From an uncultured Candidatus Saccharibacteria bacterium (GTDB lineage Bacteria; Patescibacteriota; UBA1384; XYA2-FULL-43-10; CAINNR01), in NCBI GenBank assembly GCA_964626415.1, contig CAZVFH010000003.1:1-55252 (forward strand): a DNA stretch of 55,252 bases, given 5' to 3'. Positions 23,422 through 40,004 of this stretch are shown here, in pieces. The position numbers and the translations under genes are program-made. The notes under the pieces were generated by a model. That model was not told where the DNA came from, searched no databases, and saw nothing but the letters and a program-made list of their open reading frames with translations. Each line of letters begins with the position of its first letter. Position 1 is the stretch's first letter.

Positions 23422-23988
23422 ATGTATGTTCCAAGGAATCCGCTAGGATATAAAAAACTTTTGACATGGCCCGCCTGCATCAGCTGTGCTGAAAGCATTG
23501 CGGGCAGGAGACAGGCGAATAAGATTTTCGTGTTAACGGAGGAGTTTGTGAAATCGTTATCAAAATTTCATCCGCAGACGCGCCAAAGAACGATGGATAC
23601 TGCTGATCATATGTTGCGGTCGACGCAGTCGGTTGTTCGGAATATTGAAGAAGGTTTTTCACGAGCGACGACCAAGGAATATGTAACTTTTTTGGGATTT
23701 TCCAAAGGATCTTTGGAAGAATTATTAAATGATTTTGAATACTGCCGGCGGAGTAATCTCGGCGATGAGAAGATTTCCGATCAAGCGATTTTTCTCTGCA
23801 AAGGCGAGGGGAAGATGCTTCACAACCAGATAGAATCACTCGAACGAAAGCGATTTTCTGATGGTACAACTTCAGTAAATGAGAAAATAGCAAATCATTG
23901 GCAGAAAGAATCACAAAGAAAAAAAGAATTCGATAAGTATTTAAGAGAGTTTATGGGAGATAAGGGGAAGAAGGAAGAAGAAAATTAA
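23422..23988 (+). CDS. four-helix-bundle protein (23S rRNA IVS / Avd-like family)
   Basis: Family-typical SVVRNIEEGFSR...YVTFLGFSKGSLEELLNDF. Carries an in-frame GC-rich hairpin insert near the N-terminus. Confidence 0.7.
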   Translation: MYVPRNPLGYKKLLTWPACISCAESIAGRRQANKIFVLTEEFVKSLSKFHPQTRQRTMDTADHMLRSTQSVVRNIEEGFSRATTKEYVTFLGFSKGSLEELLNDFEYCRRSNLGDEKISDQAIFLCKGEGKMLHNQIESLERKRFSDGTTSVNEKIANHWQKESQRKKEFDKYLREFMGDKGKKEEEN

Positions 23989-24113: not shown

Positions 24114-24560
24114 ATGAAAAAATTAAAACCGCTTGAATATGCGCTTTGGCTTTTGGGGAAGCAAGATCGAAGTATTGGTGAAATGGAGGAGAAGCTTCGT
24201 CGAAGGGAGTGTTCAAAAGAAGAAATTTCCAAAACGCTTGATTTTCTAATTTCCAACAAATTTTTAGATGATCAGAAGTTTGCCGAAAATTTTGTCCGTT
24301 TCAAAAAATCACTAAAGCCAGTCGGAAAATATTATCTTCGGAGTAAATTATTAGCAAAAAGAGTTCCAAATGAAATTATCGAGAAAGTCCTTTTAGAAAA
24401 TTCTGATGAACTTTCAGAGATTTCCAAAGCTGCTAATCATTTTTTTGCCGAAAACAAAAAAATCCCGAAGGAAAAAATCTACCAAAAACTCGTTCGCCAC
24501 CTTCTCTCGCGTGGTTTTGAATGGGAAAAAGTCAGGGAGGTTGTTTCGGGGAAAATGTGA
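24114..24560 (+). CDS. recX: RecA regulator RecX
   Basis: 148 aa with a three-repeat helical pattern (ALWLLGKQDRSIGEMEEKL..., LDDQKFAENFVR...) typical of RecX. Confidence 0.75.
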   Translation: MKKLKPLEYALWLLGKQDRSIGEMEEKLRRRECSKEEISKTLDFLISNKFLDDQKFAENFVRFKKSLKPVGKYYLRSKLLAKRVPNEIIEKVLLENSDELSEISKAANHFFAENKKIPKEKIYQKLVRHLLSRGFEWEKVREVVSGKM

Positions 24561-24690
24561 TACAATAAAGATAAATCAAAAATCAAAATTCAAAAATCAA
24601 AATGATTGTAAAATTCAAAATTCCAAACCATTTTTCATTTTGAATTGTAATTTTGATCTTTGCAATTTGCATTTTGAATTTTCTAGGAGG
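24561..24690 (+). other. imperfect low-complexity hairpin (AAATCAAAA / TTTTGAATT units), recX-ppsA intergenic region
   Basis: The A-rich left arm (AAATCAAAAATCAAAATTCAAAAATCAAAATG) faces the U/G-rich right arm (CATTTTGAATTGTAATTTTGATCTTTGCAATTTGCATTTTGAATTTT). Confidence 0.55.
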
Positions 24691-24694
24691 GGTT

Positions 24695-27025
24695 ATGTTA
24701 AAGAAAAAAACGCCAAAGTTTATTCTCTGGTTTAAAGATGTTGGCAAAGATGATATTGCGTGTGTTGGTGGCAAGGGTGCTAATCTTGGCGAACTTGTCA
24801 GGGCTGGTTTTCCAGTTCCAAACGGCTTCATTGTTACTGCCGACGCTTATTTTTATTTTCTTTTAAAAAGCGGCATCGGTCCGGCGATTTCAAAAGTCCT
24901 GAAAAATTTTGATCCTGAGGATTCAAAAAAGCTAAATTCGTTATCAAAAATTATCAAAAAACAAATTCTTGCGGCAAAAATTCCGAAAGAAATCGAGGAT
25001 CAAGTTCTTGCGAGCTATAAAGAACTCGGCGATGTTCTTGTTGCCGTTCGTTCTTCTGCTACTGCCGAAGATCTGCCGGAGGCGTCATTTGCCGGTCAAC
25101 AGGCGACATATCTAAATATTTCTGGTGGCAAAGAAGTCGTCGAAGCATTAAAGAAATGTTACGCCTCGCTTTTTGAAGCGCGAGCAATTTATTATCGAGC
25201 GACAAATAAATATGATCAGATGAAAGTCGGGCTTGCGGTCCCAATTCAGATGATGGTCCAATCGGAGAAATCCGGCGTAATGTTCACTGTTGATCCGGTC
25301 TCTGGTGATACCGAGAAGTTAATAATTGATGCCGGTTATGGTCTTGGCGAAGCAGTTGTTTCCGGTTCAATTACGCCAGATCGCTACATAATTGAAAAAT
25401 CATCTTTGAAAATTGTCGCAAAAGAGATAAATGAGCAGGAGTGGAAGATTGTCAAAAGCAACTCCGGCGGCGACCGCCATGTTTCAGTTCCGCAAGCGGA
25501 CAGAAAAGACCAAAAACTTTCCGACGCTGAAATTATTGATCTGGCAAAGATTGGCACAAAAATTGAACAACATTATAACTCACCGCAAGATATTGAGTTT
25601 GCGATTGAAAAGGGGAAAATTTATATCGTTCAGTCGAGACCGATCACAACTTTAAAAAATCAAAAATCAAAAATCAAAAATCAAAATGAAGGAACCGAAA
25701 CTATTGAAGAAGACAAGGCAGAAGTTTTGTTACGTGGGGCGGCGGCTTCGATGGGAATGGCAAGGGGACCAGTGAAAGTGATTCATTCTTATGAACAAAT
25801 TGATGAGGTCAAAGATGGTGATGTGCTTGTAACTGAAATGACAACGCCGGATTTTGTTCCGGCGATGAAAAGAGCGGTGGCGATTGTCACTGATACTGGC
25901 GGGAGAACTTGTCATGCAGCGATCGTCAGTCGAGAAATGGGAATTGCTTGCGTCGTTGGCACCGGCACGGCGACATCAAAATTAAAAACTGGTCAAGTTG
26001 TTACCGTTGACGGAGTGAAAGGTCTTGTTTATAAAGGGGCAATAAAAATAGATGGTGGGGGGTCGAAAGTGGGTGTTGGAGTAGAAAGGTCAGTCGGGGC
26101 AGTATTATCAGAGGAGATTCCGATTACCGGCACCAAGGTTTATTTAAATCTTGCTGAACCGGATTCTGCGGAAGAAGCGGCAAAACTCCCAGTCGACGGT
26201 GTCGGATTGCTTCGTGCCGAATTTATTATCGCCGAAATTGGCGAGCATCCAAGAGCGATGATTGCCGATGGCCGTGGCGCCGAGTTTACGGAAAAATTAT
26301 CACAAGGAATCGGCAAAATCGCCGGCGCCTTTTCGCCACGACCGGTAATTTACCGAGCAACCGATTTTAAAACCAACGAATACAAAAACTTAAAAGGCGG
26401 AGAAAAATACGAGGGTGAAGAAGGAAATCCAATGATTGGAATGCGCGGTGCACTGCGCTACATCACCGATCCTGAGGTTTTTAATCTTGAGCTTGAAGCG
26501 ATAAAGGTTGTCCGCAATAAAATGGATTTAACCAATTTACATTTGATGATTCCATTTATTCGCACAGTAGACGAAATGCGTAAAGTTATCGAGCTGGTTT
26601 CTGCTGCCGGATTAAGTCGTGGTCCAGATTTTAAGATTTGGATGATGGTTGAAGTGCCGTCTAATGTTATCCTTCTAGAGAAATTTCTTGATCTTGGGAT
26701 TGATGGTGTTTCGCTTGGAACAAACGATCTAACACAATTAACTTTGGGCGTTGATCGCGACAATCAAAATTTGGCCAAGGTTTTCGACGAGCGTGATGAA
26801 GCAGTCGAGCTCTCGGTTTCCTATGTCGTCAAAACCTGTAGAAAGCGGGGAGTCACCTCATCTGTTTGCGGTCAAGCTCCAAGCATTTTTCCTGAGTTTA
26901 CCGAACTAATGGTAAAAAACGGTGCGACTTCCGTTTCCGTTACCCCCGATGTTGCGATAAAAACAAGAAAAATTATCGCATCAGTTGAAAAACGGCTTCT
27001 TTTGCAGAACATTGTTAACCGATAA
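24695..27025 (+). CDS. ppsA: phosphoenolpyruvate synthase (pyruvate, water dikinase)
   Basis: Motif VGGKGANLGEL and the phosphohistidine motif GGRTCHAAIVSREMGI, with a C-terminal PEP-utilising TIM barrel. GGAGGGG SD before the ATG at 24695. Confidence 0.9.
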   Translation: MLKKKTPKFILWFKDVGKDDIACVGGKGANLGELVRAGFPVPNGFIVTADAYFYFLLKSGIGPAISKVLKNFDPEDSKKLNSLSKIIKKQILAAKIPKEIEDQVLASYKELGDVLVAVRSSATAEDLPEASFAGQQATYLNISGGKEVVEALKKCYASLFEARAIYYRATNKYDQMKVGLAVPIQMMVQSEKSGVMFTVDPVSGDTEKLIIDAGYGLGEAVVSGSITPDRYIIEKSSLKIVAKEINEQEWKIVKSNSGGDRHVSVPQADRKDQKLSDAEIIDLAKIGTKIEQHYNSPQDIEFAIEKGKIYIVQSRPITTLKNQKSKIKNQNEGTETIEEDKAEVLLRGAAASMGMARGPVKVIHSYEQIDEVKDGDVLVTEMTTPDFVPAMKRAVAIVTDTGGRTCHAAIVSREMGIACVVGTGTATSKLKTGQVVTVDGVKGLVYKGAIKIDGGGSKVGVGVERSVGAVLSEEIPITGTKVYLNLAEPDSAEEAAKLPVDGVGLLRAEFIIAEIGEHPRAMIADGRGAEFTEKLSQGIGKIAGAFSPRPVIYRATDFKTNEYKNLKGGEKYEGEEGNPMIGMRGALRYITDPEVFNLELEAIKVVRNKMDLTNLHLMIPFIRTVDEMRKVIELVSAAGLSRGPDFKIWMMVEVPSNVILLEKFLDLGIDGVSLGTNDLTQLTLGVDRDNQNLAKVFDERDEAVELSVSYVVKTCRKRGVTSSVCGQAPSIFPEFTELMVKNGATSVSVTPDVAIKTRKIIASVEKRLLLQNIVNR

Positions 27026-27074
27026 AAAATTAGATTTTTTTAATAAAAAGGATATAATTATTGTAAGTAAGTAG

Positions 27075-30000
27075 ATGAGGGGAATTATAAAATTTAGAAT
27101 CAAAAAGCCAAAATTGGCAGTTTTTGTGGTTGTATCTACAGCCGTAGTTTTGCTGTGGAGAAATATTTTTTCCTTTTTGAAGAGAAGATTTCGATTAGCT
27201 CTATTGTTAACAGAAAATAATAAGCAAGTAAGGGAAATAGTAAAAAGGATTAGACATTTATTTAGAAGATTCGCTCTAAAAGCGGCTGTTCTTTCGGCAC
27301 TAATAGGATTAATTTTTACTCTGACTATTCCACATATCAAGGCCGAATCATCGGCTTGGGATTTTGGCGTCTCTGGCGACTATACTTTTGACAGCAATCT
27401 GATCGAAGTTATATCAAATTCGGGGCGATTGAAAGATCAGCAATATGTGACCGATGCCAACACCGCCGGACTCTGGCATAACGATGAATCCTCTGGGCTT
27501 ACGGCAGACGATGCCTCGGCTAACGCTAATGACGCCACTCTTTGCGCTAACGGTTCGGTATTTTCAACGGGAAAGATCAACAACGCTCTCTCGCTTGACG
27601 GCAACGCTAGTTGCGCCAAAGTCAACGACTCGGCGTCTTTATCAATGTCAAGCGCTCTGACCCAAGAAGCGTTTGTCAAATTTAACAGCGCTTTTGACAA
27701 AACAAGCGGAAATCCTTTTACCGTCACTGACAAAGGGAATTACAAACTGTATTTTGACTCAACTGACGGCAAATTGAAATTTGAGCTTGATCCAAGCACG
27801 GCTAAAAGCTGGACAAAGCAGGGCGAAGGAGTCGGAAACAGCTGGCCGATTCAAAATCCGGGATCGGTTCGATCGCTTGTCGAGTACAGTTCGGCTCTTT
27901 ATGTTGGTTTGGAAGGAGCAGCCGGCGACGCCGAGATCTGGCGCTACAGCGGAAGCGGCACTAGTTGGACGAAAATCGGCGGCGACGGGCTTAACTCCAG
28001 TTGGGGCGATCAGATGTTTGAAAGCGTTACATCCTTGATCGTTAGGGGAACGAATATTCTCGCTGGTCTTGGAAGCACCACTAACGACGCCGAGGTTTGG
28101 AGCTGGAACGGCTCGGCCTGGACTAAAATCGGCGGCGATGGGCTCAACCAAAGCTGGAGTAGTAATGATCGGGTTTTTGCTTTTGCCAACATCGGTTCGA
28201 TCACTTATGCAGCGACCGGTTCAAATGGTGCCGGTGGCGCCAATGTTTATAGCTATGATGGTTCGATTTGGACATGGATCGGCGGCCAAGGGATTAATTC
28301 AAGTTGGGCTGCCACTACCTATGAACAGGCCTACAGCATTACCGCTTCGGCTACGACTTTGTATGTTGGGTTGGGCTTCAATACCGGAGAAGCCGAGGTT
28401 TGGAGCTGGAACGGTTCGTCTTGGACTAAAATTGCTGACGATGGTTTGGGCTTTTCCGCCGGCTACGAGATAGTCGCAAGTTTAGTGTATTCAGGAACTA
28501 CTCTTTATGCTGGGCTTAGCAACAACGCTGGTGATGCTGATGTTTATAGTTGGAATGGTACAACTTGGACACAAATTGGCGGCGACGCCCTTAATTCCAG
28601 CTGGACGGGAAGTTATGAGAGCGTCCAAGGACTAATTATGGTTAATTCGGTACTATACGCCGGTCTTGGAACCAACGCCGACGACGCCGAGGTTTGGAGC
28701 TGGAACGGCTCGGCCTGGACTAAAATCGGCGGCGACACCCTTAATTCCAGCTGGACTTACGGCAAGGAATCTGCTTGGCTCGGGTCGCTCGGCAACGATC
28801 TGATTGTCGGGACGGGAATCGAGTACTATGACTCCGAGGTCTGGCGCTACAGCGGAGGCGCTTGGAGCTGGATCGGTGGCAAGGACTATAATTCATGGGC
28901 GCCGTCTGTTTTAAGCTCGGTTTATTCACTGGCGATTAATGACGGCAAACTCTATGTTGGCTTTGGAGGAACAAATAAACAAGCAGTCGTTTGGCAGTAT
29001 GACGGCGCAAATTGGAGCCATGTCGGTGGCAATGTCAATTCCAGCTGGGATGAGTCAATAGAATATGTCTACTCACTGGCTTCGTACAATGGTAAGGTTT
29101 ATGCCGGACTGGGGAATGGCACCGGAGACGCCGATCTTTGGGAATTTAACGGCACAAATTCTTGGACCAAGGTCGGCGGCGACGCCGTCAATTCTAGCTG
29201 GGCGGCCTCAACTTTTGAAGATGTTCGCACTCTCCTCATTTATAAAGGCGAGATTTATGCCGGGCTGGGTTATAGCTCTAACGACGCCGAGGTTTGGAAA
29301 TATAATGGTTCAAGCTGGACCAAAGTTGGTGGCGATGGCGCTAATTCGAGCTGGAGCAACAATAGCGTCGAGGTAAATTCAATGACTTCCGACGGGCGTT
29401 ATATTTATGCCGGTGTTTCTGGGGATGGCACAAATAATGCCTCGGAAATCTGGCGTTGGGACAACTCAACTTGGACGCAGATCGGCGGCGATAGGATAAA
29501 CTCCAGCTGGGAACAGGGCAATGTGGCGCTGGTCAACTCATCGGCGACTTATGACGGCAACACCTATGTCGGTCTCGGTACATACGCCGGCATGGCAGAG
29601 GTTTGGAAATTTAATGGTTCGGCTTGGTCAATAGTCGGGGGCAACAATATAAACTCTTCTTGGGGGGTCAATACCTATGAAGGAGTTTACAGTTTGGCGG
29701 TCTACGGAACAAATCTCTATGCCGGTTTAGGTAGTGGCACTGATGACGCCGAGGTTTGGAGCTATAACGGTTCAACATGGACAAAAGTTGGTGGTGATGC
29801 CGTCAATTCCAGCTGGGCAGCATCAACTTATGAATATGTTTTTAGCATGGCGGTTTACGGCGCAAATCTTTACGCCGGATTAGGAGCTTCTACCAGCGAC
29901 GCCGAGGTCTGGAGCTGGAATGGCACGGCTTGGACAAAAGTTGGCGGGGATAGCGTCAATTCCAGTTGGGGAGCTGGTTATGAAATGGTTTACAGCTTAG

Positions 30001-33000
30001 CAGTTTTTGGCGCTAATTTATATGCCGGACTAGGGAATAGCACTGACGACGCCGAGGTCTGGAGCTTTAACGGCTCGGCTTGGACTAAAGTTGGTGGCGA
30101 CGGCGTTAATACGAGCTGGACAACCGGCTATGAAGCGGTTTATAGCCTGGCCGCCTCGGCTACTAATCTCTACGCCGGTCTTAGCAGCGACGCCGGCGAC
30201 GCCGAGGTCTGGAGCTTTAACGGCTCGGCTTGGACCAAAATCGGCGGCGACGGCTTAAATTCAAGCTGGGCCGATGCAACCTATGAAGAGGTTGATAGTT
30301 TAGCCGTTTCAGGATCAACTTTGTATGCTGGAATTGGACTCACTGCTGGTGACGGTGAGGTCTGGAGCTTTAACGGCTCGTCTTGGACTAAAATTGGCGG
30401 CGATAGCGTCAATTCGGGCTGGACAACCGGTTATGAATCCGCCAGAACACTGCTGGTTTCCGGCTCAACACTTTTTGCCGGACTGGGGAACACAATCCGT
30501 GACGCCGAGGTTTGGAGTTGGAACGGCTCGGCTTGGACCAAGGTCGGCGGGGATAATCTTAATTCAAGCTGGGGCGAGGCTCTTGAATATGTCTTTTCTT
30601 TGGCAATTTATCTTGGAGATCTCTACGCTGGATTCGGAAATAACGTCGGCGACGCCGAGGTTTGGAAATATAACGGCTCAAGCTGGAGCAAAATTGGCGG
30701 CGATGGTGTCAACTCTAGTTGGGGTGATCTGGAGTATGAGGCCGTTTACAGTTTAGTTGAATATAATGGTTTGCTCTACGCCGGATTGGGAGATTCCGCC
30801 GGCGATGGTGAGCTCTGGAGCTTTAACGGTACGAGCTGGACCCAAATTGGCGGGGATGGCATTAATTCAAGTTGGACAGGAACTTCCTATTACAGGGCTT
30901 ACTCGATGATTACTTATAATGGAAAACTTTATGCTGGTCTTGGTTCAACATCCGCTGGAACCGCCGCCGGAGAACTCTGGTCGTATGGCAATAACACGGT
31001 ACTTAGTTCAACTTCAACCAGCTGGTCTACCGGTTGGTATCATCTTGCCGCCACCTACGACGGCTCGACGGTTAAGCTTTATGTCAACGGGACTCTTGAC
31101 AATTCCGCATCAGCCACCTTAACCCTGTCTGATCTTTCTACCCCGCTTTATATCGGTACCGGTTTAGGGACGAATTCTACTTATTCCACAACCAATAACT
31201 TTATTGGTTTGGTAGACGAAGTGAGGGTATCGAACAGCGCAAGGACGACTTTTGTCACCAGTAAATACTCGACCTCCTCTCCAACTATTCGGCCGACTGC
31301 CACTCTGTCTTCAACCGGTGTTACACAGTGGAGCGGTTTTGCTTCAAATGAAACATTAAATGGTGGCACGATTAAATACCGTCTTTCAAACGACAACGCC
31401 GCCAGTTGGAAATATTGGAACGGCTCAAGCTGGGCAACCTCATCTTCTGTTTCAGAGTCAAACTTGACTGCCGATATTAACTCACAGATTACGACTTTTT
31501 CCGTAACGAGTAACGGTCTTCACTGGCAAGCCATTTTAATCAGCGATGGAGATCAGCTGGTCATTTTGAACAGCGTAACGATCTCTTTTACTATTGACAC
31601 TTCCGCTCCGGATTTACCCTCCACTTTGACAGCTAAAAATGAAACTGGTGGCTTAGTTGATTTAACCACTAATACTTGGTATAAATATCCGACCCCGGCT
31701 TTCTCATGGAATGTTCCCGATGATAATGCCGGACAAGGTGAACTTCCTTCGGGAATCGCCGGATATTATGTTTACTTCGGAACGGACGATACAGCCGACC
31801 CGTTGACCGCTGGAGCGTATCAAACCGGAACCTCATATTCTGCTTCAAATTTAATTACCGGTTCAACTTATTATCTCCTGATTAAAGTTAAGGACAACGC
31901 TTCAAATACAACAACAAATATCTGGTCGCCGTTTATTTACAAATATGATGGCACTGCTCCAACGGTTTCAGAGTTTATCAATGTTTCACCCGTTGGTTGT
32001 TCAATTTCCTCTACCTTCACTTTTACTTGGCTGGCAGGAGCGGACACCGGAGGATCTGGTCTCTCCGGCTATGAATATAAAGTCGGCTCAACAGGAACGG
32101 TCTTGGCAATTAACGATCTGACGGTTACTGTCGCGCCTTATCAGGAAGGAGATAATGTCTTTTACTTAAGAGCGAAAGATGTCGCCGGTAATACCTCTGG
32201 TTGGCAGACAAGCGTTTTCTGCTCAACAGGCGCGGCTCAAATAATTGACGGACCGACGGTTTCTTCCAATCCCTCGACAATTGTTGTAACTTGGATCTCG
32301 ACCAAGGAAACTACCTCCTTTGTCCAAGTTTACGAAGACAATACTTATATCTCTGAACAAGGGCACAATGAATACACCCTATCGCACTCCGTCAGAGTAG
32401 TCGGATTGCAGCCAGAGAGAAATTATCGCTATAAGTTGGTTTGGATTGATTCGACAAATAACATGGGGGAGAGTAATTGGTTCGAAACCAGTACTACCAA
32501 ATCACCCTCCTTCTCGAATGTGACAACCGAGCTTTTAAGTCCGCAGGATATCCTTGTCTCATGGGCAACAAGCAGATCGAGCCAATCAAAGATATTCTTT
32601 GGTGAAAATTCTCCGACTCAAGAAATTGCTATCGACGGTTATTCCACAACCTTCTCTAAAAAATTGACAAATCTAAAGGGCGGCACGACATATCTAATAA
32701 AATTAAAGGCAACAACTGAAGATAATTTTGAATTTCAATCAGATAACTACTCATTTTCTACTCCTCCTCTGCCGTTAATTTCCAGTGTAAGATTCGATGC
32801 GATTTCTGACCGAGCTGGAAGCGCGATGAGGATTACATGGACAACGAATATTGAGACAACTTCTTCCATTTATTTTGGACCTAAGGGAGAAAATAAAAAA
32901 GAAATTTCTTCAAGTGAGTTAAAAATTGAGCATGAAATGGAAATGGTTGACCTTGCTGATTCGACAATATACGAAGTTATTGTTAAGGGAACTGATAAAT

Positions 33001-33437
33001 TTGGGAATGTGACAACTTCCGACACTAATTCTTTTACCACCCCAATGGATACTCGCCCCCCGGTAATTTCAGGTATTATTATTGAAACTTCAAATGTCGG
33101 TCTCGACAAACAGGATAAAGCCCAGATCGTTGTAAGTTGGAAAACTGATGAACCGACTTCGAGTCAAATCGAATACGGAGAAGGTCTTTCTGAGGGAAAT
33201 TATACTCAAAAAACAGTTGAAGATAAAACAATGACTAATTCTCATCTAATAATTATCTCCGAATTAATTCCGGGTAAGCCATATCATTTTAGAGTCATTT
33301 CGTCTGATGGGGCCGGCAATGTAACCTTTTCAGAGGATCATGCTGTGATTCCTGGCGAAGTACCAAGCAGTGCTTTGCAGTTGATTTTAAATATCTTTCA
33401 GAAATTATTTGGTTGGATTGGACTAGGGAAAAACTAA
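27075..33437 (+). CDS. giant (2120 aa) N-terminally anchored surface protein: split LamG-like domain enclosing ~21 Kelch-like blades, then a conserved ~80-aa domain and ~6 FN3-like domains
   Basis: Two N-terminal hydrophobic segments. LamG-type signatures appear before the repeats (NALSLDGNASCAKV...FVKFNS) and after them (WYHLAATYDGSTVKLYVNG...FIGLVDEVRVSN). Repeat consensus is LYAGLG...DAEVWSWNGSAWTKIGGDGLNSSW. FN3-like segments carry W..S/T and Y.Y.V patterns. Confidence 0.85.
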   Translation: MRGIIKFRIKKPKLAVFVVVSTAVVLLWRNIFSFLKRRFRLALLLTENNKQVREIVKRIRHLFRRFALKAAVLSALIGLIFTLTIPHIKAESSAWDFGVSGDYTFDSNLIEVISNSGRLKDQQYVTDANTAGLWHNDESSGLTADDASANANDATLCANGSVFSTGKINNALSLDGNASCAKVNDSASLSMSSALTQEAFVKFNSAFDKTSGNPFTVTDKGNYKLYFDSTDGKLKFELDPSTAKSWTKQGEGVGNSWPIQNPGSVRSLVEYSSALYVGLEGAAGDAEIWRYSGSGTSWTKIGGDGLNSSWGDQMFESVTSLIVRGTNILAGLGSTTNDAEVWSWNGSAWTKIGGDGLNQSWSSNDRVFAFANIGSITYAATGSNGAGGANVYSYDGSIWTWIGGQGINSSWAATTYEQAYSITASATTLYVGLGFNTGEAEVWSWNGSSWTKIADDGLGFSAGYEIVASLVYSGTTLYAGLSNNAGDADVYSWNGTTWTQIGGDALNSSWTGSYESVQGLIMVNSVLYAGLGTNADDAEVWSWNGSAWTKIGGDTLNSSWTYGKESAWLGSLGNDLIVGTGIEYYDSEVWRYSGGAWSWIGGKDYNSWAPSVLSSVYSLAINDGKLYVGFGGTNKQAVVWQYDGANWSHVGGNVNSSWDESIEYVYSLASYNGKVYAGLGNGTGDADLWEFNGTNSWTKVGGDAVNSSWAASTFEDVRTLLIYKGEIYAGLGYSSNDAEVWKYNGSSWTKVGGDGANSSWSNNSVEVNSMTSDGRYIYAGVSGDGTNNASEIWRWDNSTWTQIGGDRINSSWEQGNVALVNSSATYDGNTYVGLGTYAGMAEVWKFNGSAWSIVGGNNINSSWGVNTYEGVYSLAVYGTNLYAGLGSGTDDAEVWSYNGSTWTKVGGDAVNSSWAASTYEYVFSMAVYGANLYAGLGASTSDAEVWSWNGTAWTKVGGDSVNSSWGAGYEMVYSLAVFGANLYAGLGNSTDDAEVWSFNGSAWTKVGGDGVNTSWTTGYEAVYSLAASATNLYAGLSSDAGDAEVWSFNGSAWTKIGGDGLNSSWADATYEEVDSLAVSGSTLYAGIGLTAGDGEVWSFNGSSWTKIGGDSVNSGWTTGYESARTLLVSGSTLFAGLGNTIRDAEVWSWNGSAWTKVGGDNLNSSWGEALEYVFSLAIYLGDLYAGFGNNVGDAEVWKYNGSSWSKIGGDGVNSSWGDLEYEAVYSLVEYNGLLYAGLGDSAGDGELWSFNGTSWTQIGGDGINSSWTGTSYYRAYSMITYNGKLYAGLGSTSAGTAAGELWSYGNNTVLSSTSTSWSTGWYHLAATYDGSTVKLYVNGTLDNSASATLTLSDLSTPLYIGTGLGTNSTYSTTNNFIGLVDEVRVSNSARTTFVTSKYSTSSPTIRPTATLSSTGVTQWSGFASNETLNGGTIKYRLSNDNAASWKYWNGSSWATSSSVSESNLTADINSQITTFSVTSNGLHWQAILISDGDQLVILNSVTISFTIDTSAPDLPSTLTAKNETGGLVDLTTNTWYKYPTPAFSWNVPDDNAGQGELPSGIAGYYVYFGTDDTADPLTAGAYQTGTSYSASNLITGSTYYLLIKVKDNASNTTTNIWSPFIYKYDGTAPTVSEFINVSPVGCSISSTFTFTWLAGADTGGSGLSGYEYKVGSTGTVLAINDLTVTVAPYQEGDNVFYLRAKDVAGNTSGWQTSVFCSTGAAQIIDGPTVSSNPSTIVVTWISTKETTSFVQVYEDNTYISEQGHNEYTLSHSVRVVGLQPERNYRYKLVWIDSTNNMGESNWFETSTTKSPSFSNVTTELLSPQDILVSWATSRSSQSKIFFGENSPTQEIAIDGYSTTFSKKLTNLKGGTTYLIKLKATTEDNFEFQSDNYSFSTPPLPLISSVRFDAISDRAGSAMRITWTTNIETTSSIYFGPKGENKKEISSSELKIEHEMEMVDLADSTIYEVIVKGTDKFGNVTTSDTNSFTTPMDTRPPVISGIIIETSNVGLDKQDKAQIVVSWKTDEPTSSQIEYGEGLSEGNYTQKTVEDKTMTNSHLIIISELIPGKPYHFRVISSDGAGNVTFSEDHAVIPGEVPSSALQLILNIFQKLFGWIGLGKN
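27830..30980 (+). repeat. tandem ~150-nt coding repeats (Kelch-like blades) inside the giant gene
   Basis: Near-identical strings such as GACGCCGAGGTTTGGAGCTGGAACGGCTCGGCCTGGACTAAAATCGGCGGCGA recur (for example near 28085 and 28685). About 21 units are present, and they are GGC-rich relative to the flanks. Confidence 0.85.
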
Positions 33438-33486: not shown

Positions 33487-34230
33487 ATGAAAATGGAACA
33501 AATGAGGGAAAACAAAGATGCTGAATTTGTTAAACCAGCACATGAAAGGATAATTAATGTCTCGGGTTTAAAAAAAGTATTTACAGTCGGAGATAATCTT
33601 GTTCATGGTTTAAGAGGCATTGATCTGGAGATCGACTCCACTGATTTTTTGGTCATTTTCGGTCCTTCCGGTTGCGGAAAATCAACCTTGCTAAACATCA
33701 TCTCCGGTAATGATACTCCGAGCGAAGGCAAGGTTGAAATTAGGGGAATGGATATTTTTAAACTAAATGAGGATGAAAGAGGCGTTTTCCGCTCTAAAAA
33801 GATGGGGTTAATCCATCAGTTGCCATACTGGATTAAGTCGCTATCTGTTTTGGAGAATGTGGCTTTGCCACTGATAATTGAAGGAGAAAAACCAAAATTT
33901 GCAAAGGAAAAAGCAATAAAAGTAATGGCTGAAATTAATATTACCAAGTTAGCAGTACAGCGGCCAACACAACTTTCTGGTGGGCAACAACAGAAAGTTG
34001 GTTTAGCCAGAGCATTGGTCTCTAATCCGTGGATACTGTTAGCCGATGAACCGACAGGAAATCTTGACAGCACATCCTCGGATGAAATGATGTCTTTGTT
34101 CGATATGCTAAACCGTAAGTATAAACGAACAATAATTATGGTCACTCACAACCAGGCATATTGGGAACTTGGTACCCGCTGTATTGAGATGTCTGACGGT
34201 TTAATCACAAAAGAAAATAAACATGGATAA
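33487..34230 (+). CDS. ABC transporter ATP-binding protein (MacB/LolD/FtsE-like)
   Basis: Walker A GPSGCGKST, signature LSGGQQQ and Walker B ILLADEPTGNLD. Confidence 0.9.
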   Translation: MKMEQMRENKDAEFVKPAHERIINVSGLKKVFTVGDNLVHGLRGIDLEIDSTDFLVIFGPSGCGKSTLLNIISGNDTPSEGKVEIRGMDIFKLNEDERGVFRSKKMGLIHQLPYWIKSLSVLENVALPLIIEGEKPKFAKEKAIKVMAEINITKLAVQRPTQLSGGQQQKVGLARALVSNPWILLADEPTGNLDSTSSDEMMSLFDMLNRKYKRTIIMVTHNQAYWELGTRCIEMSDGLITKENKHG

Positions 34231-35419
34231 AGGTTTTATTGTAGAATTTGCCTTTAAGAATTTAATTAATCACCGTTTGCGAACTATCTTAACGTTGGTT
34301 GGTGTTATAATTGGAATCTCTGCTGTTGTTTTTCTCTTGGCTTTTGCTTTTGGAGTTGAGAGATTAGTAACGCTAGAAGTAACTGGTGGCGACGCTTTTA
34401 AGTTAATTGATATCGGGACTGGAAATTCGCAAATAGTCAAGTTAAACAACACAGCAGTAAATGAAATAGGAGCTCTTAATAATGTGCGGTTGATAAAAAC
34501 CACCACCAATGTGGCAGCCAAGGTAAAAGAAGGCAACAATACAATGGATGTGGCTTTTTTTGCTTCTTCTCCGGAATATTTTGAATGGTCGGGCATCCGT
34601 CCAAAGTGGGGCAAAAACATTTCGGAGGGCAAAAACAATGAGATTATGATAAACAGTAATTGTATTTCTTTCTTAAAGACAACACATCCGGAAGATGTGA
34701 TTGGTAAAACTTTGACTCTTGATTTAATTTTACCTAAGGAGTTGTTGGAAAATGGGAACAATAAGGTAGTGGCGAATCAAAAATTTTCTATTGTTGGAGT
34801 AATTCAAAACAATGCCACTCCAAGCATCTACGGCTTAAATCAAGTGCTTGCCGATAATAATGTAGTAAATTATTCACAAGCAAAGGTTGAAATTAACAAT
34901 AATAATAAGGTTCTTGAGCTGCGCAAACAGATTGAAAGTATGGGATTTAAAACCCAATATGTTGGCGATACTATTTCTCAGATTCAGCAGATATTCAATA
35001 TCTTTAAGTTAATTTTAGGCAGTTTTGGCTTGATTGCCTTGATCGTTGCCTCAATTGGCATGTTTAATACTTTAACCATTTCCCTTCTGGAACGTATGAG
35101 AGAAGTGGCACTGCTTAAAATTCTCGGTGCTCGCCGACGTGATATCAGTCGACTTTTTCTAACTGAAGCGCTAATATTTGGAGCAATTGGCGGGGTTTTA
35201 GGGACAGGTATGGGGATTTTGATAGGAAAAATTACTAACTTCGTTCTTAATATTTACGCCACACGCGGGGGCGGTGATGCAGTTAGTGTTTTTTACTTTC
35301 CTATTTGGTTAATTGTAACCAGCGTCATTTTTTCTATTCTAATTGGTTTATTAACTGGAATTTATCCTTCTCGTAGGGCAGCCAGAATCGCCCCGCTAGA
35401 TATTATTAGATATGAGTAG
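34223..35419 (+). CDS. ABC transporter permease, FtsX/MacB type
   Basis: TM1, a ~230-aa extracytoplasmic domain, then three TM segments with the FtsX-domain pattern (LTISLLERMREVALLKILGARRRDI). The start overlaps the ATPase stop (ATGGATAA). Confidence 0.85.
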   Translation: MDKGFIVEFAFKNLINHRLRTILTLVGVIIGISAVVFLLAFAFGVERLVTLEVTGGDAFKLIDIGTGNSQIVKLNNTAVNEIGALNNVRLIKTTTNVAAKVKEGNNTMDVAFFASSPEYFEWSGIRPKWGKNISEGKNNEIMINSNCISFLKTTHPEDVIGKTLTLDLILPKELLENGNNKVVANQKFSIVGVIQNNATPSIYGLNQVLADNNVVNYSQAKVEINNNNKVLELRKQIESMGFKTQYVGDTISQIQQIFNIFKLILGSFGLIALIVASIGMFNTLTISLLERMREVALLKILGARRRDISRLFLTEALIFGAIGGVLGTGMGILIGKITNFVLNIYATRGGGDAVSVFYFPIWLIVTSVIFSILIGLLTGIYPSRRAARIAPLDIIRYE

Positions 35420-35520
35420 ACATACAAATTCTTAATTTGTAAATAATTTTTCCAGCGACACGACCCTCCAATGAAAATAAAAATTTGTGGTATAGTGTAA
35501 ATATATCAAGAAAGGGCATA

Positions 35521-36312
35521 ATGTCTTACTGGGTTGTCGCTTTGGCGGCAGTTGGAATCGGATATATAGCTTTTGGATTCTATGTACTTGTAAAAAAGAA
35601 AGCTGATGCTATCAGTCGTGTTTTTATGTTTTTCGCCTTGAGCGTGGCCGCCTGGAATTTGTCTTTGATGGCGCTCGTTGGACGATTGGTCCAGTCAAAA
35701 ACCGCGATTATAGTGTTTGATCGGATCGCTTACGCCGCAGCTCCCTTTATTATTATGAGTATTGTTTTCTATTTAGTGAAACTTCGTGGCTTAAGCATTT
35801 GGCAAGAGATTAAAAAGAATAAGTTTTTACTATTCTTAATAGTTCTGGCAATGGTAAACCTGATTTTAGTTCCGACAAATTTAATAAGCAACAATCAAGG
35901 CGACAGCCATATGGTTGTCGGCTCATTGATGCCTTTGTTCGGATTTTTTGTTTTGGTTGCGTTAATTTACGCCGTTTACTTGTGCTACGACGGCTGGAAA
36001 ACAGGGCACGAGGATTCAAGAAGAAAATTTTGGTTTGTTCTTCTTGGCTTGATTTTGACCTCGGTTTGCAGTTTGATATTCGATGTGGTGCTTCCGATTC
36101 TCGGATATCAGTCCCTGCCAATGGTCGGAGCGCTCTCGACAATCTTTGTGGTTTGGTTTTTAGGACTTGGGGCGGTTGGCGTATATATCGCCGGCGGAGC
36201 CCTAGGGATAATCAGCAGTATCTTGATAGCAATCATTCTGTCCTCGATTCTTATCGGCATAGCGGTATTTATAATGTTTATTTTACTGGCGGGAATACTT
36301 GGCTCTGTGTAG
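35521..36312 (+). CDS. 7-TM membrane protein resembling the N-terminal 7TM sensor module of histidine kinases, without a kinase domain
   Basis: Seven hydrophobic helices and no soluble domain. An extended -10 (TGGTATAGT) lies at about 35497-35505. Confidence 0.45.
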   Translation: MSYWVVALAAVGIGYIAFGFYVLVKKKADAISRVFMFFALSVAAWNLSLMALVGRLVQSKTAIIVFDRIAYAAAPFIIMSIVFYLVKLRGLSIWQEIKKNKFLLFLIVLAMVNLILVPTNLISNNQGDSHMVVGSLMPLFGFFVLVALIYAVYLCYDGWKTGHEDSRRKFWFVLLGLILTSVCSLIFDVVLPILGYQSLPMVGALSTIFVVWFLGLGAVGVYIAGGALGIISSILIAIILSSILIGIAVFIMFILLAGILGSV

Positions 36313-36409: not shown

Positions 36410-37083
36410 ATGGAAACAATTGATAGAAATAAGAAACAATTCAAAGTAAAACTAATCACTATATTTATTGTTGCGAGTTTTTTGCTGTCGTTGGCTTTGC
36501 CGTTTATTTTAGGGCACAAGGAAACAGAGGCAACTGATGGCTGGTGGGACGCGAACTATTTAAAAAGAGCAAGAATTGCGGTTACAGCCAACTATAACGC
36601 CCTGCTTCAAGGCGCGCCGGTTTTCAAATTTCAAATAACGGAACCGATTGGTATTGGTGGAACGGTTTGTCTTGGACTTCAACCACAGGCAATGACTACA
36701 ACGATGCTTCAACAATTAACTCAAACATCTCCTCATTTGCAACTCAAGTCGGAAGCGGCACTTTTTACTTTAAAACATTTATGCTAACCGACGGCACAGA
36801 GCAGGTCGATTTGGCCTCGGTTACCCTTGTTCATGATTTGCAGCTGACTGGCCTACCGAAGACCGGAAGTGACCATTTGGGTTTATTCGACCAAGAGTTT
36901 TCTCCGATTGCTACTGGCACATTGCTTGGTCTCGGAACTCTTTTTTGGGGGGGGGAAGATGGTTGTTTCTATTTGCCAAAAAGCGAAAAGGGATTAGCTA
37001 GAACTAATAGTCGAATTATCAGGAACTCAAAAGTTCTAAACCAAAAAGTAGAGGATCAATCAAGTCTCACATTTTTATACTGA
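36410..37083 (+). pseudogene. frameshifted remnant of a small LPKTG-anchored surface protein (paralogue of the C-terminal part of the 681-aa protein)
   Basis: Signal peptide followed by WWDANYLKRARIAV in frame 1. A frame change near 36600-36615 leads into GFQISNNGTDWYWWNGLSWTSTTGNDYNDASTINSNISSF..., then LPKTG. A G9 tract at 36947-36955 breaks the C-terminal TM/basic tail, and a G8 tract would read LFWGGKMVVSICQKAKRD-stop. Confidence 0.7.
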
Positions 37084-37128: not shown

Positions 37129-39966
37129 ATGAAAGCAAAAAGCTGTTTTGGGGCGTCTTTGTTAACACTGTTTTTTCGGTGCTTATTTTTGGGTGTAATT
37201 ATCACACTTGTTGTTTTATTCGTACTAAAAGCTCAAAAAACTAAAGCCGCTAACTGCGGTGGAGCGGTTGTCTGTGCATGTGGGGATACAGTTACCTCAA
37301 GCTATACTTTAACCGGCAACCTGACTTGCACTGGCAATGGGCTGAGAGTCGGCGCCGCCGGTATTACTATTGATGGCGGGGGATTTACGATAACAGGAGA
37401 CGGGGGTGCTGATGACTATGGCATTTACAACCTCAGCGGCTACAGCGGAGTGACTATTCGCGATTTTGATAATATTACAAACTTCAACTATGGAATATAT
37501 ATAACTGGGGGAATAAATAATAATATACAAAATGTTACGGCCAATGCCAATAATTTCGTGGGAATTATTCTTAATTCGGGTTCAGGGCATACGGTAAATC
37601 AGAGCACAGCAAACAATAATAACTCGTATGGAATCCTTGTGAATTGCAATTCCAATTTTATTACAAATAATACCGCAAATTCGAATCTAGGAGATTTGGT
37701 AAATGGTAATCCAAATGCTGGAATATATTTAAATATAAATACTAATTCAAACACTTTAACTGGCAATACAACAGACAATAATTCGCAACATGGCATAGGG
37801 TTATTTCTTTCAAACAACAATACCTTAACGTCCAATTCCGCTTCAGGAAATCGCGTCGGCAATATTTCCAATATATCGCTATTGAGCACGGGTAATGCTA
37901 TCGATACCACCAATCTCGTTGAAGGAAAACCGGTATATTATCTGTCGAATATTTCAGACGTAATTTATGACGGCGTAAATGCTGGGATGTTCAACTGTTT
38001 TAGCTGCACCAATGTAACAATAAAAAACACAACGCTTGCAACGAATAATAATTATGCAATTGCCTTTAAAAACTCAACGGGTTCCGTCGTTCAAAATAAT
38101 ATAATCGCCAACAGTTATTGTGGCATATTTATGAGCGGCTCCGTAGCAACAATTTCAGGAAATTCCGTTAGCGGTTCGGACGTCGGACTGACTGTCTCAA
38201 ACGGAAGCGTGGTTTCTGGCAATACGATATTTTCAAATAAACTTGGACTCTCCGGTTCGGGATTAAGTGGCACAACCACTATAAGCAATAACCAGTTTTT
38301 AAAGAATGGAGTCGGCTATACCAACAGCGCCACGGCAGTTTTTCAAAATAATCATTTTTTTCACGACCTAAACATGGACAACTCATCATCTTCGAACAGG
38401 ATTAATATGTTGAGATACAGCGATACTGAAAGAACTTATAATCCAGGTGAAACAATTAATTTTTCGTTCTCGACACTTACCGCCAATGGCGTAGCCTGTG
38501 ACGCTGGAACTTGCAGTTATTCCGTTGCGATTAGCCCAACAAATAATTCTCTCTCAAGCAGTTTGGCTGGCGATACTGTCAGTGGCAGTTTTGTGCCTAA
38601 TAGGAGCGGTATTTTCTCTTTGTTGATTACTGTAACGGACGGAAACGGTAATGAAACAAAGAGAAATGTTGTATTTCTGATTGGTTCCACTTTCTCCTCA
38701 ACCACAAGATATTATTTCCGTTCTCAAAAGCCAACGCATAGCCAACCGAGGGGAAATGGGCTTGATACCAGCGTATTGAAACTTACCGCTCCCAGTTCGG
38801 ATGAGTTCAACTGGTGTTCTGGCTGGGTTCAATACTCCCCTGACGATATTCCCGAGTATCCGTTTTCAAGCATCTATAGCGTCGAATCACCGTTTTATTA
38901 TAAGCTCGCGCTTGATTCCTTTTTTGGAGTTCAAAGATATGTCGCCTATAATTCGACCTCTGATTCGTCCGTTTCGGTTTCATCCTCCCCAAACTACTTA
39001 TTAACAACAAAAACAATCAGCAATTTAAACTTTATGATGGATTATTTACAAAGCTGGTACAGCCTAAAATTATCACTGGGAGGTAACACCAGTTCTTTAC
39101 ATCCCCAGTTAAGATCAACCGCCTTGCTTCCGTCTTACACTGATATCACTTACTCCTACACCACTGCACCTACCATAAAAACATCCTCAAATAACGATAT
39201 TTTGATACTATCCGCTACAGCAACAGACGCAGGCAATACTGATCCAAACATTGTTTTGAATAATCCAACTTTATCTTCGGCCTCGACAACATTAACCTTA
39301 GATAGTATTACTCGGCCGTTCATTAATGGTACGACAGCAATAAATTCTAGCGGCAGCGCTACGGTAAGCGCTACTTTGGCAGCCGGGGCTACGACTACTT
39401 TGAATACGGCCAATATGGTTCTTGCTCCTTCTTCCGGCAGTGTTACGGTTGATATTGCAACATGGAACACTTCGGGAACTTACAGCAAGGAATGGACCGA
39501 AAATGGTTCGGCCGCTGGTATTACAACGGGGCATACAGTTGGAAATATGAATCCGAATACCAGTTACACTTTGTCTATTGATGGCATACTTGGCAACTAC
39601 TATGTTTCAAATGGATCGGGGGAGATCGCTTTCAACTACACTGGCGGGTACTCTGCCCATACTTTTGCCTTGGCGGAGGAAGTATTGCCGACATCAGATA
39701 TTGTGTCATCGTTAATCGGATCAACAAATGGCTCTGCATCGACTCCTTTAACTGCCAGCAATAATGACACACAAATTCCTGAGAAAACTGAAGAAAACGA
39801 TTCAGGAACGATTGCAACTACTCCAGCCGAAAATAAAACCATTGCCAAAAACATCGGTAAAAACTTAATGATCTATTCCAGAATAATTATCGGTCTCGGA
39901 GCTCTTTTTGTTGGGGGGAGATGGCTAGTTTTGTTTGCAAAAAGACGAAGAAGCAGAATGGCTTGA
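37129..39966 (+). CDS. surface protein with right-handed parallel beta-helix (PbH1/NosD-like) repeats and a C-terminal TM anchor
   Basis: Signal/TM segment. Repeated ~22-aa units (GIYITGGINNNIQNVTANANNFVGIIL, NSYGILVNCNSNFITNNTAN ...). C-terminal sequence NIGKNLMIYSRIIIGLGALFVGGRWLVLFAKRRRSRMA. Confidence 0.8.
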   Translation: MKAKSCFGASLLTLFFRCLFLGVIITLVVLFVLKAQKTKAANCGGAVVCACGDTVTSSYTLTGNLTCTGNGLRVGAAGITIDGGGFTITGDGGADDYGIYNLSGYSGVTIRDFDNITNFNYGIYITGGINNNIQNVTANANNFVGIILNSGSGHTVNQSTANNNNSYGILVNCNSNFITNNTANSNLGDLVNGNPNAGIYLNINTNSNTLTGNTTDNNSQHGIGLFLSNNNTLTSNSASGNRVGNISNISLLSTGNAIDTTNLVEGKPVYYLSNISDVIYDGVNAGMFNCFSCTNVTIKNTTLATNNNYAIAFKNSTGSVVQNNIIANSYCGIFMSGSVATISGNSVSGSDVGLTVSNGSVVSGNTIFSNKLGLSGSGLSGTTTISNNQFLKNGVGYTNSATAVFQNNHFFHDLNMDNSSSSNRINMLRYSDTERTYNPGETINFSFSTLTANGVACDAGTCSYSVAISPTNNSLSSSLAGDTVSGSFVPNRSGIFSLLITVTDGNGNETKRNVVFLIGSTFSSTTRYYFRSQKPTHSQPRGNGLDTSVLKLTAPSSDEFNWCSGWVQYSPDDIPEYPFSSIYSVESPFYYKLALDSFFGVQRYVAYNSTSDSSVSVSSSPNYLLTTKTISNLNFMMDYLQSWYSLKLSLGGNTSSLHPQLRSTALLPSYTDITYSYTTAPTIKTSSNNDILILSATATDAGNTDPNIVLNNPTLSSASTTLTLDSITRPFINGTTAINSSGSATVSATLAAGATTTLNTANMVLAPSSGSVTVDIATWNTSGTYSKEWTENGSAAGITTGHTVGNMNPNTSYTLSIDGILGNYYVSNGSGEIAFNYTGGYSAHTFALAEEVLPTSDIVSSLIGSTNGSASTPLTASNNDTQIPEKTEENDSGTIATTPAENKTIAKNIGKNLMIYSRIIIGLGALFVGGRWLVLFAKRRRSRMA

Positions 39967-40004
39967 TAATCTTTATTTTTCGATTTTACCAGTTTTTTAG
40001 TACA

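Follow-up and report, generated by a model that had tools for sequence, protein, structure and literature searches.

A LamG-like domain interrupted by tandem propeller blades in a giant predicted surface protein of Patescibacteria, encoded beside a MacB-type transporter

A large part of bacterial diversity belongs to the Patescibacteria, which apparently live attached to other cells, and the surface proteins involved are largely unknown. The candidates put forward by surveys are only [quoted passage not shown] (PMC13059738). How such a protein may be built, and with what it may work, is the question raised by one gene of an uncultured Candidatus Saccharibacteria bacterium from groundwater (assembly GCA_964626415.1, contig CAZVFH010000003.1). 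The stretch analysed, called the window below, comprises positions 1 to 55,252 of the contig (55,252 nucleotides, nt). An earlier description made from the letters of the window (the sequence-only reading) had noticed, at 27470-31255, a LamG-like jelly-roll split by a long insertion of Kelch-like blades. We think it likely that the gene encodes a membrane-anchored protein in which a LamG-plus-21-blade binding head is carried on a stalk of immunoglobulin-like and fibronectin type III-like (Ig/Fn3) domains, that this protein works with a MacB-type transporter, and that its blade number is selected in sevens. The evidence is as follows.

A single open reading frame (ORF), 27075..33437 on the + strand and 2,120 amino acid residues (aa) long, covers the entire region noted. 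The motifs from which the split had been read all occur in it where they had been placed: LWHNDESSGL at aa 133 (nt 27471), GKINNALSLDG at aa 166, QEAFVKFNS at aa 197 and YKLYFDSTDGKLKFELD at aa 223, and, after the repeats, WYHLAATYDG at aa 1321 (nt 31035) and NFIGLVDEVRVSNSARTT at aa 1375. Scanned as a whole against Pfam, the protein gives a sub-threshold Laminin_G_2 match to the C-terminal half of the domain only, and the N-terminal 262 aa scanned alone give no LamG match in Pfam. The part following the repeats, also scanned alone, matches positions 73-146 of the 151 positions of Laminin_G_3 with 51.9 bits, the curated cut-off being 27.6 bits. When aa 240-1304 are removed in silico and aa 91-239 are joined to aa 1305-1400, the Laminin_G_3 search that the sequence-only reading had suggested returns positions 1-146 in one stretch (78.2 bits, E 9.3e-22). 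The N-half supplies positions 1 to ~72 of the model only once it is joined to the C-half.

A second line of evidence comes from a solved LamG-like domain, 4qvs_A (227 aa). A profile of 16 family sequences, excised in the same manner, aligns with it continuously (E 3.2e-11), profile positions 36-235 pairing with residues 2-213 of 4qvs_A. The alignment passes through the excision point, where 4qvs_A has a loop of six residues (SGYYGE); therefore, the insert appears to occupy one hairpin loop of an otherwise complete sandwich. Together, the profile matches strongly support one LamG/concanavalin-like β-sandwich interrupted in a single hairpin loop, between KLKFELD and NNTVLSS..WYHLAATYDG. The proposal that two LamG halves are parted by an insertion is thus borne out by the end-to-end Laminin_G_3 match and the 4qvs_A alignment, and the insertion, estimated earlier at ~1050 aa, measures ~1,065 aa (aa 240-1304). 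The excised sequence matches the full profile of the LamG/concanavalin A-like lectin domains (Laminin_G_3, 4qvs_A), whereas the sandwich in the window is interrupted by ~1,065 residues at a place where the equivalent loop of 4qvs_A has ~6. The arrangement carries a lesson for annotation, since standard pipelines report half a LamG domain and no repeat family. Automatic annotation sees only the C-terminal LamG half because the sandwich is split by more than 1,000 residues, and the repeats escape because the blade has no Pfam model.

Two AlphaFold models bear on the fold of the head. The window model covers aa 196-1395 and was computed with 59 relatives; its mean predicted local distance difference test score (pLDDT) is 79.1 and its predicted template modelling score (pTM) is 0.75. 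The other model is of a relative, P0024, which has a complete LamG domain and 14 blades in 975 aa, with a mean pLDDT of 91.5 and a pTM of 0.90, values that speak for a confident single assembly. The LamG halves are among the most confident parts of both, with pLDDT of 84-97 in the window model and mostly 82-97 in that of P0024, which is compatible with a packing of the halves into one sandwich.

The insert consists of tandem units of ~50 aa with the consensus V.SLA..G..LYAGLG...GDAEVWS.NGS.WTKIGGD..NSSW....YE. A regular expression finds 20 full units, in aa 265-1274, and a hidden Markov model (HMM) built from those units gives 21 matches. The array is incomplete at both ends. Ahead of the first full blade lies a partial unit, KSWTKQGEGVGNSW, seen in the window model as a single strand (E51-56, by DSSP); its counterpart in P0024 matches unit-HMM positions 30-45. 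At the other end, the sequence passes directly from ELWSYGNN, where the final unit is cut off, to the LamG strand NNTVLSS...WYHLAATYDG, and in the model the three strands of that unit (E1079-1086, E1089-1095 and E1105-1109) are followed at once by the LamG strand E1113-1116. We propose that the leading strand KSWTKQGEGVGNSW is the fourth strand of the closing, or 21st, blade. The first strand and the three-strand last piece would then complete one blade by a "velcro" closure, and since such a closure would join the two ends of the insert, the LamG halves could re-form one sandwich. The earlier count of ~21 tandem units of ~50 aa was correct, because 20 full blades are accompanied by one composite blade made of the leading and trailing partial units.

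Both models are all-β. By DSSP, the window model has 1 + 20x4 + 3 = 84 strands, or 21 blades, between the LamG strands, and the P0024 model has 1 + 13x4 + 3 strands, or 14 blades. Foldseek searches of the PDB match the window model, at probability 1.0, to LRP2, DDB1, ROS1/Sevenless, Elp2, OXG-RCBH, SF3b130 and CPSF160, and the P0024 model, again at probability 1.0, to OXG-RCBH of glycoside hydrolase family 74 (GH74), Elp2, EML-type tandem propellers (EML1), PorZ and UTP proteins. OXG-RCBH is the top match of the 14-blade model (2ebs_B, E 2e-17, template modelling scores, or TM-scores, of 0.24-0.29), and WD40 double propellers score nearly as well against that model. The four-stranded units and these matches to multi-propeller proteins agree with the expectation that the repeats would model as propeller blades. 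We infer that the 21 blades form three seven-bladed propellers, and the 14 blades of most relatives two; the earlier suggestion of three seven-bladed propellers is supported by the unit counts of 14 and 21 and by the matches to double- and triple-propeller structures. DDB1, SF3b130 and CPSF160 have 21 blades arranged as three seven-bladed propellers. They are among the best Foldseek matches, with ~1,200-1,350 aligned columns; in contrast to the window protein, they are eukaryotic intracellular WD40-like scaffolds, with 8-10% identity and TM-scores of ~0.15 to the window model. The resemblance is architectural only.

The family to which the protein belongs has 453 matches at E<=1e-5, typically of 1,900-2,100 aa, and every source name given is that of a member of the Patescibacteria (Saccharimonadales, Microgenomates, Woesebacteria, Pacebacteria and Nomurabacteria among those named). 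Blades were counted with the unit HMM in the window protein and the best 120 of the 453 homologues (n=121). There are 14 units in 100 proteins, 15 in 15, 13 in two and 21 in four, the last being the window protein, P0001, P0002 and P0003. These four are only 44-49% identical overall, yet in the N-half of LamG each is closest to the other three (55-56% versus 37-43%), which suggests that seven blades were gained once and have been kept ever since. Of 79 relatives, 71 have 950-975 aa between the WDF motif and the end of LamG. Seven more distant representatives have 14 or 15 units each. A profile search with the LamG N-half gave 31,209 matches, the top of which is dominated by unrelated multi-LamG proteins; the handful of family members extracted from it all have 14 or 15 units. 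One distant member, P0257, has 14 blades of the family type and, at aa ~725-1040, seven ~42-aa classical Asp-box repeats (NRVMTSxDGxxWT...). This seven-repeat module sits between blades 9 and 10, making a propeller in a propeller in a LamG domain. A third propeller has thus apparently been gained in two ways, by blades of the same type in the window protein and by a different Asp-box module in P0257.

Judged from these counts, the number of blades shifts by seven at a time and, across deep divergence, otherwise stays the same. Such steps argue for seven-bladed propellers and against a recombinationally unstable array. Since 14 blades are fixed in most members and 21 are kept at 44-49% identity, the pattern points to selection on whole seven-blade propellers; the array does not look like a contingency locus. 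The family is, for this reason, a clean example for the study of propeller evolution. The sequence-only reading had held that the units are highly similar in DNA, and that the array should therefore be unstable and vary in length between strains. The similarity was overstated: pairwise DNA identity of the units is 39-76%, mostly 45-65%, only units 13-17 reach 68-76%, and Tandem Repeats Finder reports only 4.5 copies at 72% matches. Nor does the predicted variability fit the family, in which, apart from the 100 of 121 proteins with 14 units, 17 have 13 or 15 and the four with 21 are diverged. The longest exact tract shared within the array is 55 nt (28084..28138 and 28681..28735, in units 2 and 6). 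Recombination between these two tracts would remove four blades and break the multiple of seven.

The place of the extra seven blades was sought with 14 position-specific blade HMMs built from relatives and scored on the 21-blade proteins. Only that of the closing blade (b14) is specific, and all others differ by 1-3 bits. The unit identity matrix shows no offset-7 signal, and a MAFFT alignment of the relatives scatters the 350-residue gap arbitrarily.

To what kind of propeller do the blades belong? They had been called Kelch-like, on the strength of a GG doublet and conserved aromatic residues, and a search with the Kelch_1-6 models had been proposed. That search, run on the 1,046-aa insert and on a 357-aa sub-segment, gave no match to Kelch_1-6 or to any other Pfam repeat at E<=10, and the whole protein has no Kelch match in Pfam at E<=1. 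The four strands per ~50-aa unit seen in both models are common to all propellers and are not diagnostic of Kelch. What the units do contain is a short Asp-box motif. The hairpin between strands 3 and 4 reads S-[WFY]-N-G-[ST]-x-W, of the general form S-x-[DN]-x-x-x-W, and the short Asp-box consensus of Quistgaard and Thirup (PMC2716378) is S/t-x-D/n-x-x-x-W/f/y, in the strand 3-4 hairpin. The motif S/T-x-D/N-x-x-x-W is complete in 12 of the 20 full units, and 17 of the 20 have the D/N plus the W. In the insert there are 22 matches to the motif, versus 4.2 +/- 2.0 in shuffles, and its location within the unit, after the third strand and before the fourth, is that of the short Asp-box definition. 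A comparison of the repeat with PDB sequences gave nothing significant, the best being the LGI1 EPTP propeller at E 5.4. The strand 3-4 motif and GH74 as top structural match point to blades of the short-Asp-box type, like those of the GH74 and sialidase superfamily, rather than Kelch.

In GH74 hydrolases, blades follow one another without interruption and build two seven-bladed propellers, the Asp-box hairpin joining strand 3 to strand 4 (PMC2716378). The tandem propellers of OXG-RCBH (1sqj/2ebs) are the closest likeness of the 14-blade relative in Foldseek; no sequence homology to them is detectable, the motif in the window is a short variant with Asn, and the window blades are far more regular, would make up three propellers and are nested inside another domain. 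OXG-RCBH is a hydrolase, whereas catalysis by the window protein would be hypothetical.

We now turn to what is encoded with the giant gene. The gene of an ATP-binding cassette (ABC) ATPase starts 49 nt past its stop codon, and a MacB-type permease gene overlaps the ATPase gene by 8 nt. In NCBIfam the ATPase comes closest to LolD; neither it nor the permease reaches any equivalog cut-off, so that the pair is not an identified LolCDE, MacB or FtsEX orthologue. A scan of the genome collection with the LamG N-half returned five loci. Gene order was taken from individual look-ups of six homologous loci (L001, L002 and L008-L011). In five of these (L002, L008, L009, L010 and L011), ATPase and permease genes lie directly 3' of the giant gene, with gaps of -4 to +26 nt. 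In L001, the permease gene directly follows the giant gene and the ABC ATPase gene is two genes upstream on the other strand. A MacB-type permease gene directly 3' of the giant gene or of its ATPase gene is therefore found in 6/6 homologous loci, and the window makes it 7/7. The giant gene forms a conserved operon with a MacB-type transporter; no other neighbour of the giant gene is conserved in the window and the six loci. In some relatives the permease is much longer than the 398 aa of the window, with 574-713 aa (L001 13924-16065, L011 11840-13924, L010 11752-14053), which implies an enlarged periplasmic domain; that of L010 is split into two genes.

The remainder of the giant protein would place the head outside the cell. 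A Kyte-Doolittle scan finds an N-terminal hydrophobic segment, and relatives have a similar single hydrophobic segment ahead of the WDF motif. The stalk that follows the LamG domain contains an OmpL47-type β-barrel-like domain at aa 1653-1715 and four Fn3/Pur_ac_phosph_N-like stretches reaching up to aa 2088. Because of the hydrophobic N-terminal segment and the Fn3/Ig domains, the protein is predicted to be located at the surface and held on the membrane by its N-terminal segment.

From this anatomy and the conserved gene order, the most likely role would be that of a binding head working with a transporter. We propose that three seven-bladed propellers and the LamG domain form a compact head, that the N-terminal segment anchors the protein, and that the Ig/Fn3 stalk displays the head. 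The head may be a multivalent binding module whose ligand, a glycan or a protein, sits either on another cell nearby or on the envelope of the bacterium itself, and its many near-identical blade loops (GGDxxNSSW) would permit multivalent binding. The family may in this way help these tiny bacteria to bind other cells. As to the transporter, MacB/FtsEX/LolCDE-type (type VII) transporters transmit ATP hydrolysis to periplasmic partners. The pair in the window resembles them in that an ATPase gene adjoins that of a permease combining a MacB periplasmic core domain with an FtsX domain; it differs in missing the equivalog cut-offs and in that the link to a partner is one of conserved gene order. 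The periplasmic domain could hold the giant protein and drive it mechanically, as FtsEX does with its partner proteins, or the transporter could help to deliver, place or release it. It is tempting to go further and propose a Patescibacteria-specific surface machine, in which ATP hydrolysis moves the head and so switches attachment to a host cell or capture of host envelope material. We regard this extension as unlikely; if true, the machine would be a core, lineage-wide device of the episymbiotic lifestyle, and the nested architecture a modular way to add binding surfaces, seven blades per step.

Several observations weigh against the picture of a three-propeller Asp-box head with a dedicated transporter. 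In the window model, pLDDT is only 35-68 in blades 1 to 4, and global TM-scores to known multi-propeller structures are 0.14-0.39; low global scores are expected, since inter-domain angles differ. That the LamG halves touch, that the first strand belongs to the last blade and that each ring has seven blades is deduced from scores, strand counts and structural matches; the packing, the velcro closure and the blades per ring are consistent with the whole-assembly pTM of P0024. The BNR/Asp-box models of Pfam do not match the insert at E<=10, so that membership in the Asp-box superfamily is not established, and the assignment draws on a short motif and one structural top match. In addition, a second, weaker hydrophobic stretch at aa 14-32 of the window protein, from the same Kyte-Doolittle scan, is of ambiguous topology, and the ATPase gene in L001 is not adjacent to the giant gene.

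Could the protein instead be an enzyme? This would be a GH74-like glycoside hydrolase that holds its substrate in the cleft between Asp-box propellers and uses LamG as a carbohydrate-binding module, harvesting polysaccharide from the host or the environment. LamG-like modules commonly accompany glycoside hydrolases, and OXG-RCBH, the best structural match of the 14-blade relative, also has the highest identity in the list, 13-15%. TM-scores to it are low, as given above, and searches of Pfam, NCBIfam and PDB sequences find no match to any glycoside hydrolase family. Most Asp-box propellers are glycosidases, but the blades of the family are unusually regular and alike in comparison with the irregular catalytic Asp-box propellers (PMC2716378), and no conserved acidic pair outside the repeat motif turned up, without a search aimed at one. 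On balance we find an enzyme quite unlikely. We give somewhat less credence still, holding it very unlikely, to a structural envelope or S-layer-type protein whose propellers and LamG would be lattice or spacer domains and not a ligand-binding head. Domain scans of the protein detect no SLH or other S-layer anchoring domain, and strict linkage in one operon with a MacB-type ABC transporter is, to our knowledge, not a known feature of S-layer genes. Such a role would suit so large a protein, which is conserved, seems to be single-copy and has anchor segments at either end; moreover, the closest solved LamG domain by sequence, 4qvs_A, is annotated "S-layer domain-containing protein", and S-layers are reported to be prevalent in Patescibacteria (bioRxiv 10.1101/2024.05.28.596244).

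The original proposal, Kelch-type blades whose similarity in DNA makes the array unstable and variable among strains, like a contingency or phase-variable adhesin, now appears highly improbable. It has in its favour the ~50-aa units with their GG doublet and conserved aromatic residues, the cluster of units 13-17 and exact shared tracts of up to 55 nt, which are enough for occasional homologous recombination. The Kelch part is largely refuted by the lack of any Kelch model match at E<=10, and the instability part is opposed both by the low DNA identity of most unit pairs and by a count that stays at 14 or 21 across proteins diverged to 34-49% identity; the lack of length variants in three metagenome runs speaks weakly against it too. 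The binding head with blades selected in sevens accounts better, in our view, for these counts.

The ingredients of the architecture are known, namely LamG, tandem Asp-box propellers, three-propeller proteins, insertion of domains into the β-sandwiches of giant adhesins, and MacB-type transporters with extracytoplasmic partners. What is new is the combination of a LamG loop that carries two or three propellers, a blade family without a Pfam model and a strict link to a MacB-type transporter across the Patescibacteria. The giant protein itself is not new, because homologues are already in public databases under generic names ("fibronectin type III domain-containing", "LamG-like jellyroll fold domain-containing"). 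In a literature search, Patescibacteria papers, including the Southlakia transposon-sequencing (Tn-seq) paper, made no mention of LamG, propeller or MacB, and no description of a nested LamG-propeller family was found in the searchable literature. Two known systems are related in design. Giant bacterial adhesins reportedly contain "split domains", in which ligand-binding domains project from an interrupted β-sandwich (Graham et al. 2024, Proteins 92:933, as cited in PMC13059738). These would be alike in that the β-sandwich of a long stalk protein is interrupted by the functional binding domain, which is presented sideways or outwards; they differ in being RTX adhesins of type 1 secretion, whereas the window protein has a LamG domain, an insert of 2-3 propellers and a MacB-type transporter. 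The Vibrio cholerae sialidase also combines an Asp-box propeller with a concanavalin-like lectin by domain insertion, a lectin-like domain being inserted into the propeller (PMC2716378); the nesting is the reverse of that in the window, where the propellers sit inside the lectin domain. Given its lineage-wide conservation, confident head model and fixed three-gene arrangement, the family is a well-defined object for structural studies and for genetic experiments with cultivable Saccharibacteria. The features of the gene and its surroundings are collected in Table 1.

Table 1. Features of the giant gene and of neighbouring genes (positions in the window).
Feature	Position	Strand	Description	Evidence
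Whole gene	27075..33437	+	2,120-aa membrane-anchored extracellular protein (predicted): anchor, split LamG with propeller insert, Ig/Fn3 stalk, conserved C-terminal tail	ORF list, homologues
N-terminal hydrophobic segment	27270..27338	+	aa 66-88; predicted signal-anchor or signal peptide after long basic N-region	Kyte-Doolittle scan
N-terminal extension and N-half of LamG/concanavalin-like sandwich	27351..27791	+	aa 93-239; ends in strand KLKFELD	Joined-halves Pfam match, 4qvs_A alignment, pLDDT 84-94
Inserted propeller region	27792..30986	+	aa 240-1304, ~1,065 aa, 21 blades (predicted)	Unit HMM, AlphaFold/DSSP strands, Foldseek
Leading partial unit	27804..27845	+	KSWTKQGEGVGNSW, aa 244-257, one strand; directly after LamG strand KLKFELD	P0024 equivalent, model strand
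20 full blades	27867..30896	+	~50 aa each, aa 265-1274	Regular expression, unit HMM
Trailing partial unit	30897..30986	+	aa 1275-1304, three strands, then directly LamG	Pattern search, model strands
C-half of LamG sandwich	30987..31253	+	aa 1305-1393, NNTVLSS..WYHLAATYDGSTVKLYVNG..LVDEVRVSNSARTT	Laminin_G_3 51.9 bits, Laminin_G_2, pLDDT 88-97
Stalk of Ig-like/Fn3-like domains	31254..33359	+	aa 1394-2095 (~700 aa)	Pfam/domain scans
C-terminal tail	33363..33434	+	SSALQLILNIFQKLFGWIGLGKN, hydrophobic/amphipathic	Conserved in family, consensus ..L...L...FGF
ABC transporter ATP-binding protein	33487..34230	+	LolD/MacB/FtsE group	ABC_tran E 8e-31; conserved position in relatives
MacB-type permease	34223..35419	+	MacB periplasmic core domain and FtsX C-terminal domain, 398 aa	Pfam/NCBIfam scans
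ORFs directly after permease	35485..36312 and 36410..36787	+		No Pfam or NCBIfam match
Probable surface protein	37129..39966	+	945 aa, right-handed β-helix/NosD repeats	Domain scan
Probable surface protein	39921..42050	+	709 aa, SBBP β-propeller repeat match	Domain scan
23S ribosomal RNA (rRNA) intervening-sequence protein family member	23422..23988	+		Domain scan
RecX	24114..24560	+		Domain scan
Phosphoenolpyruvate synthase	24653..27025	+	Full-length	971 bits

Population data for the array come from three groundwater metagenome runs, in which the window sequence is present only as contigs of ~200-1,400 nt at ~2-6x depth. They contain no length variants and no joints, although contigs so short and shallow could not have revealed any. 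In all three runs, there are also short contigs that share with the window only two stretches of ~35 nt, 27024..27059 and 33661..33694, and diverge on both sides of them. The former is intergenic, AT-rich and of low complexity and lies shortly before the start codon of the giant gene, and a mobile-element boundary at 27024-27059 was rejected for that reason; the latter lies inside the ABC ATPase gene, in the early part of the ABC_tran domain. Probably, both represent k-mers that other genomes share by chance or through conservation.

None of the three upstream genes in Table 1 (those for the 23S rRNA intervening-sequence protein, RecX and phosphoenolpyruvate synthase) is kept beside the giant gene in relatives, and the two ORFs directly after the permease gene have no conserved counterparts in the homologous loci inspected. 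The frames of the two other probable surface proteins, located 3.7 kb downstream, overlap by 46 nt.

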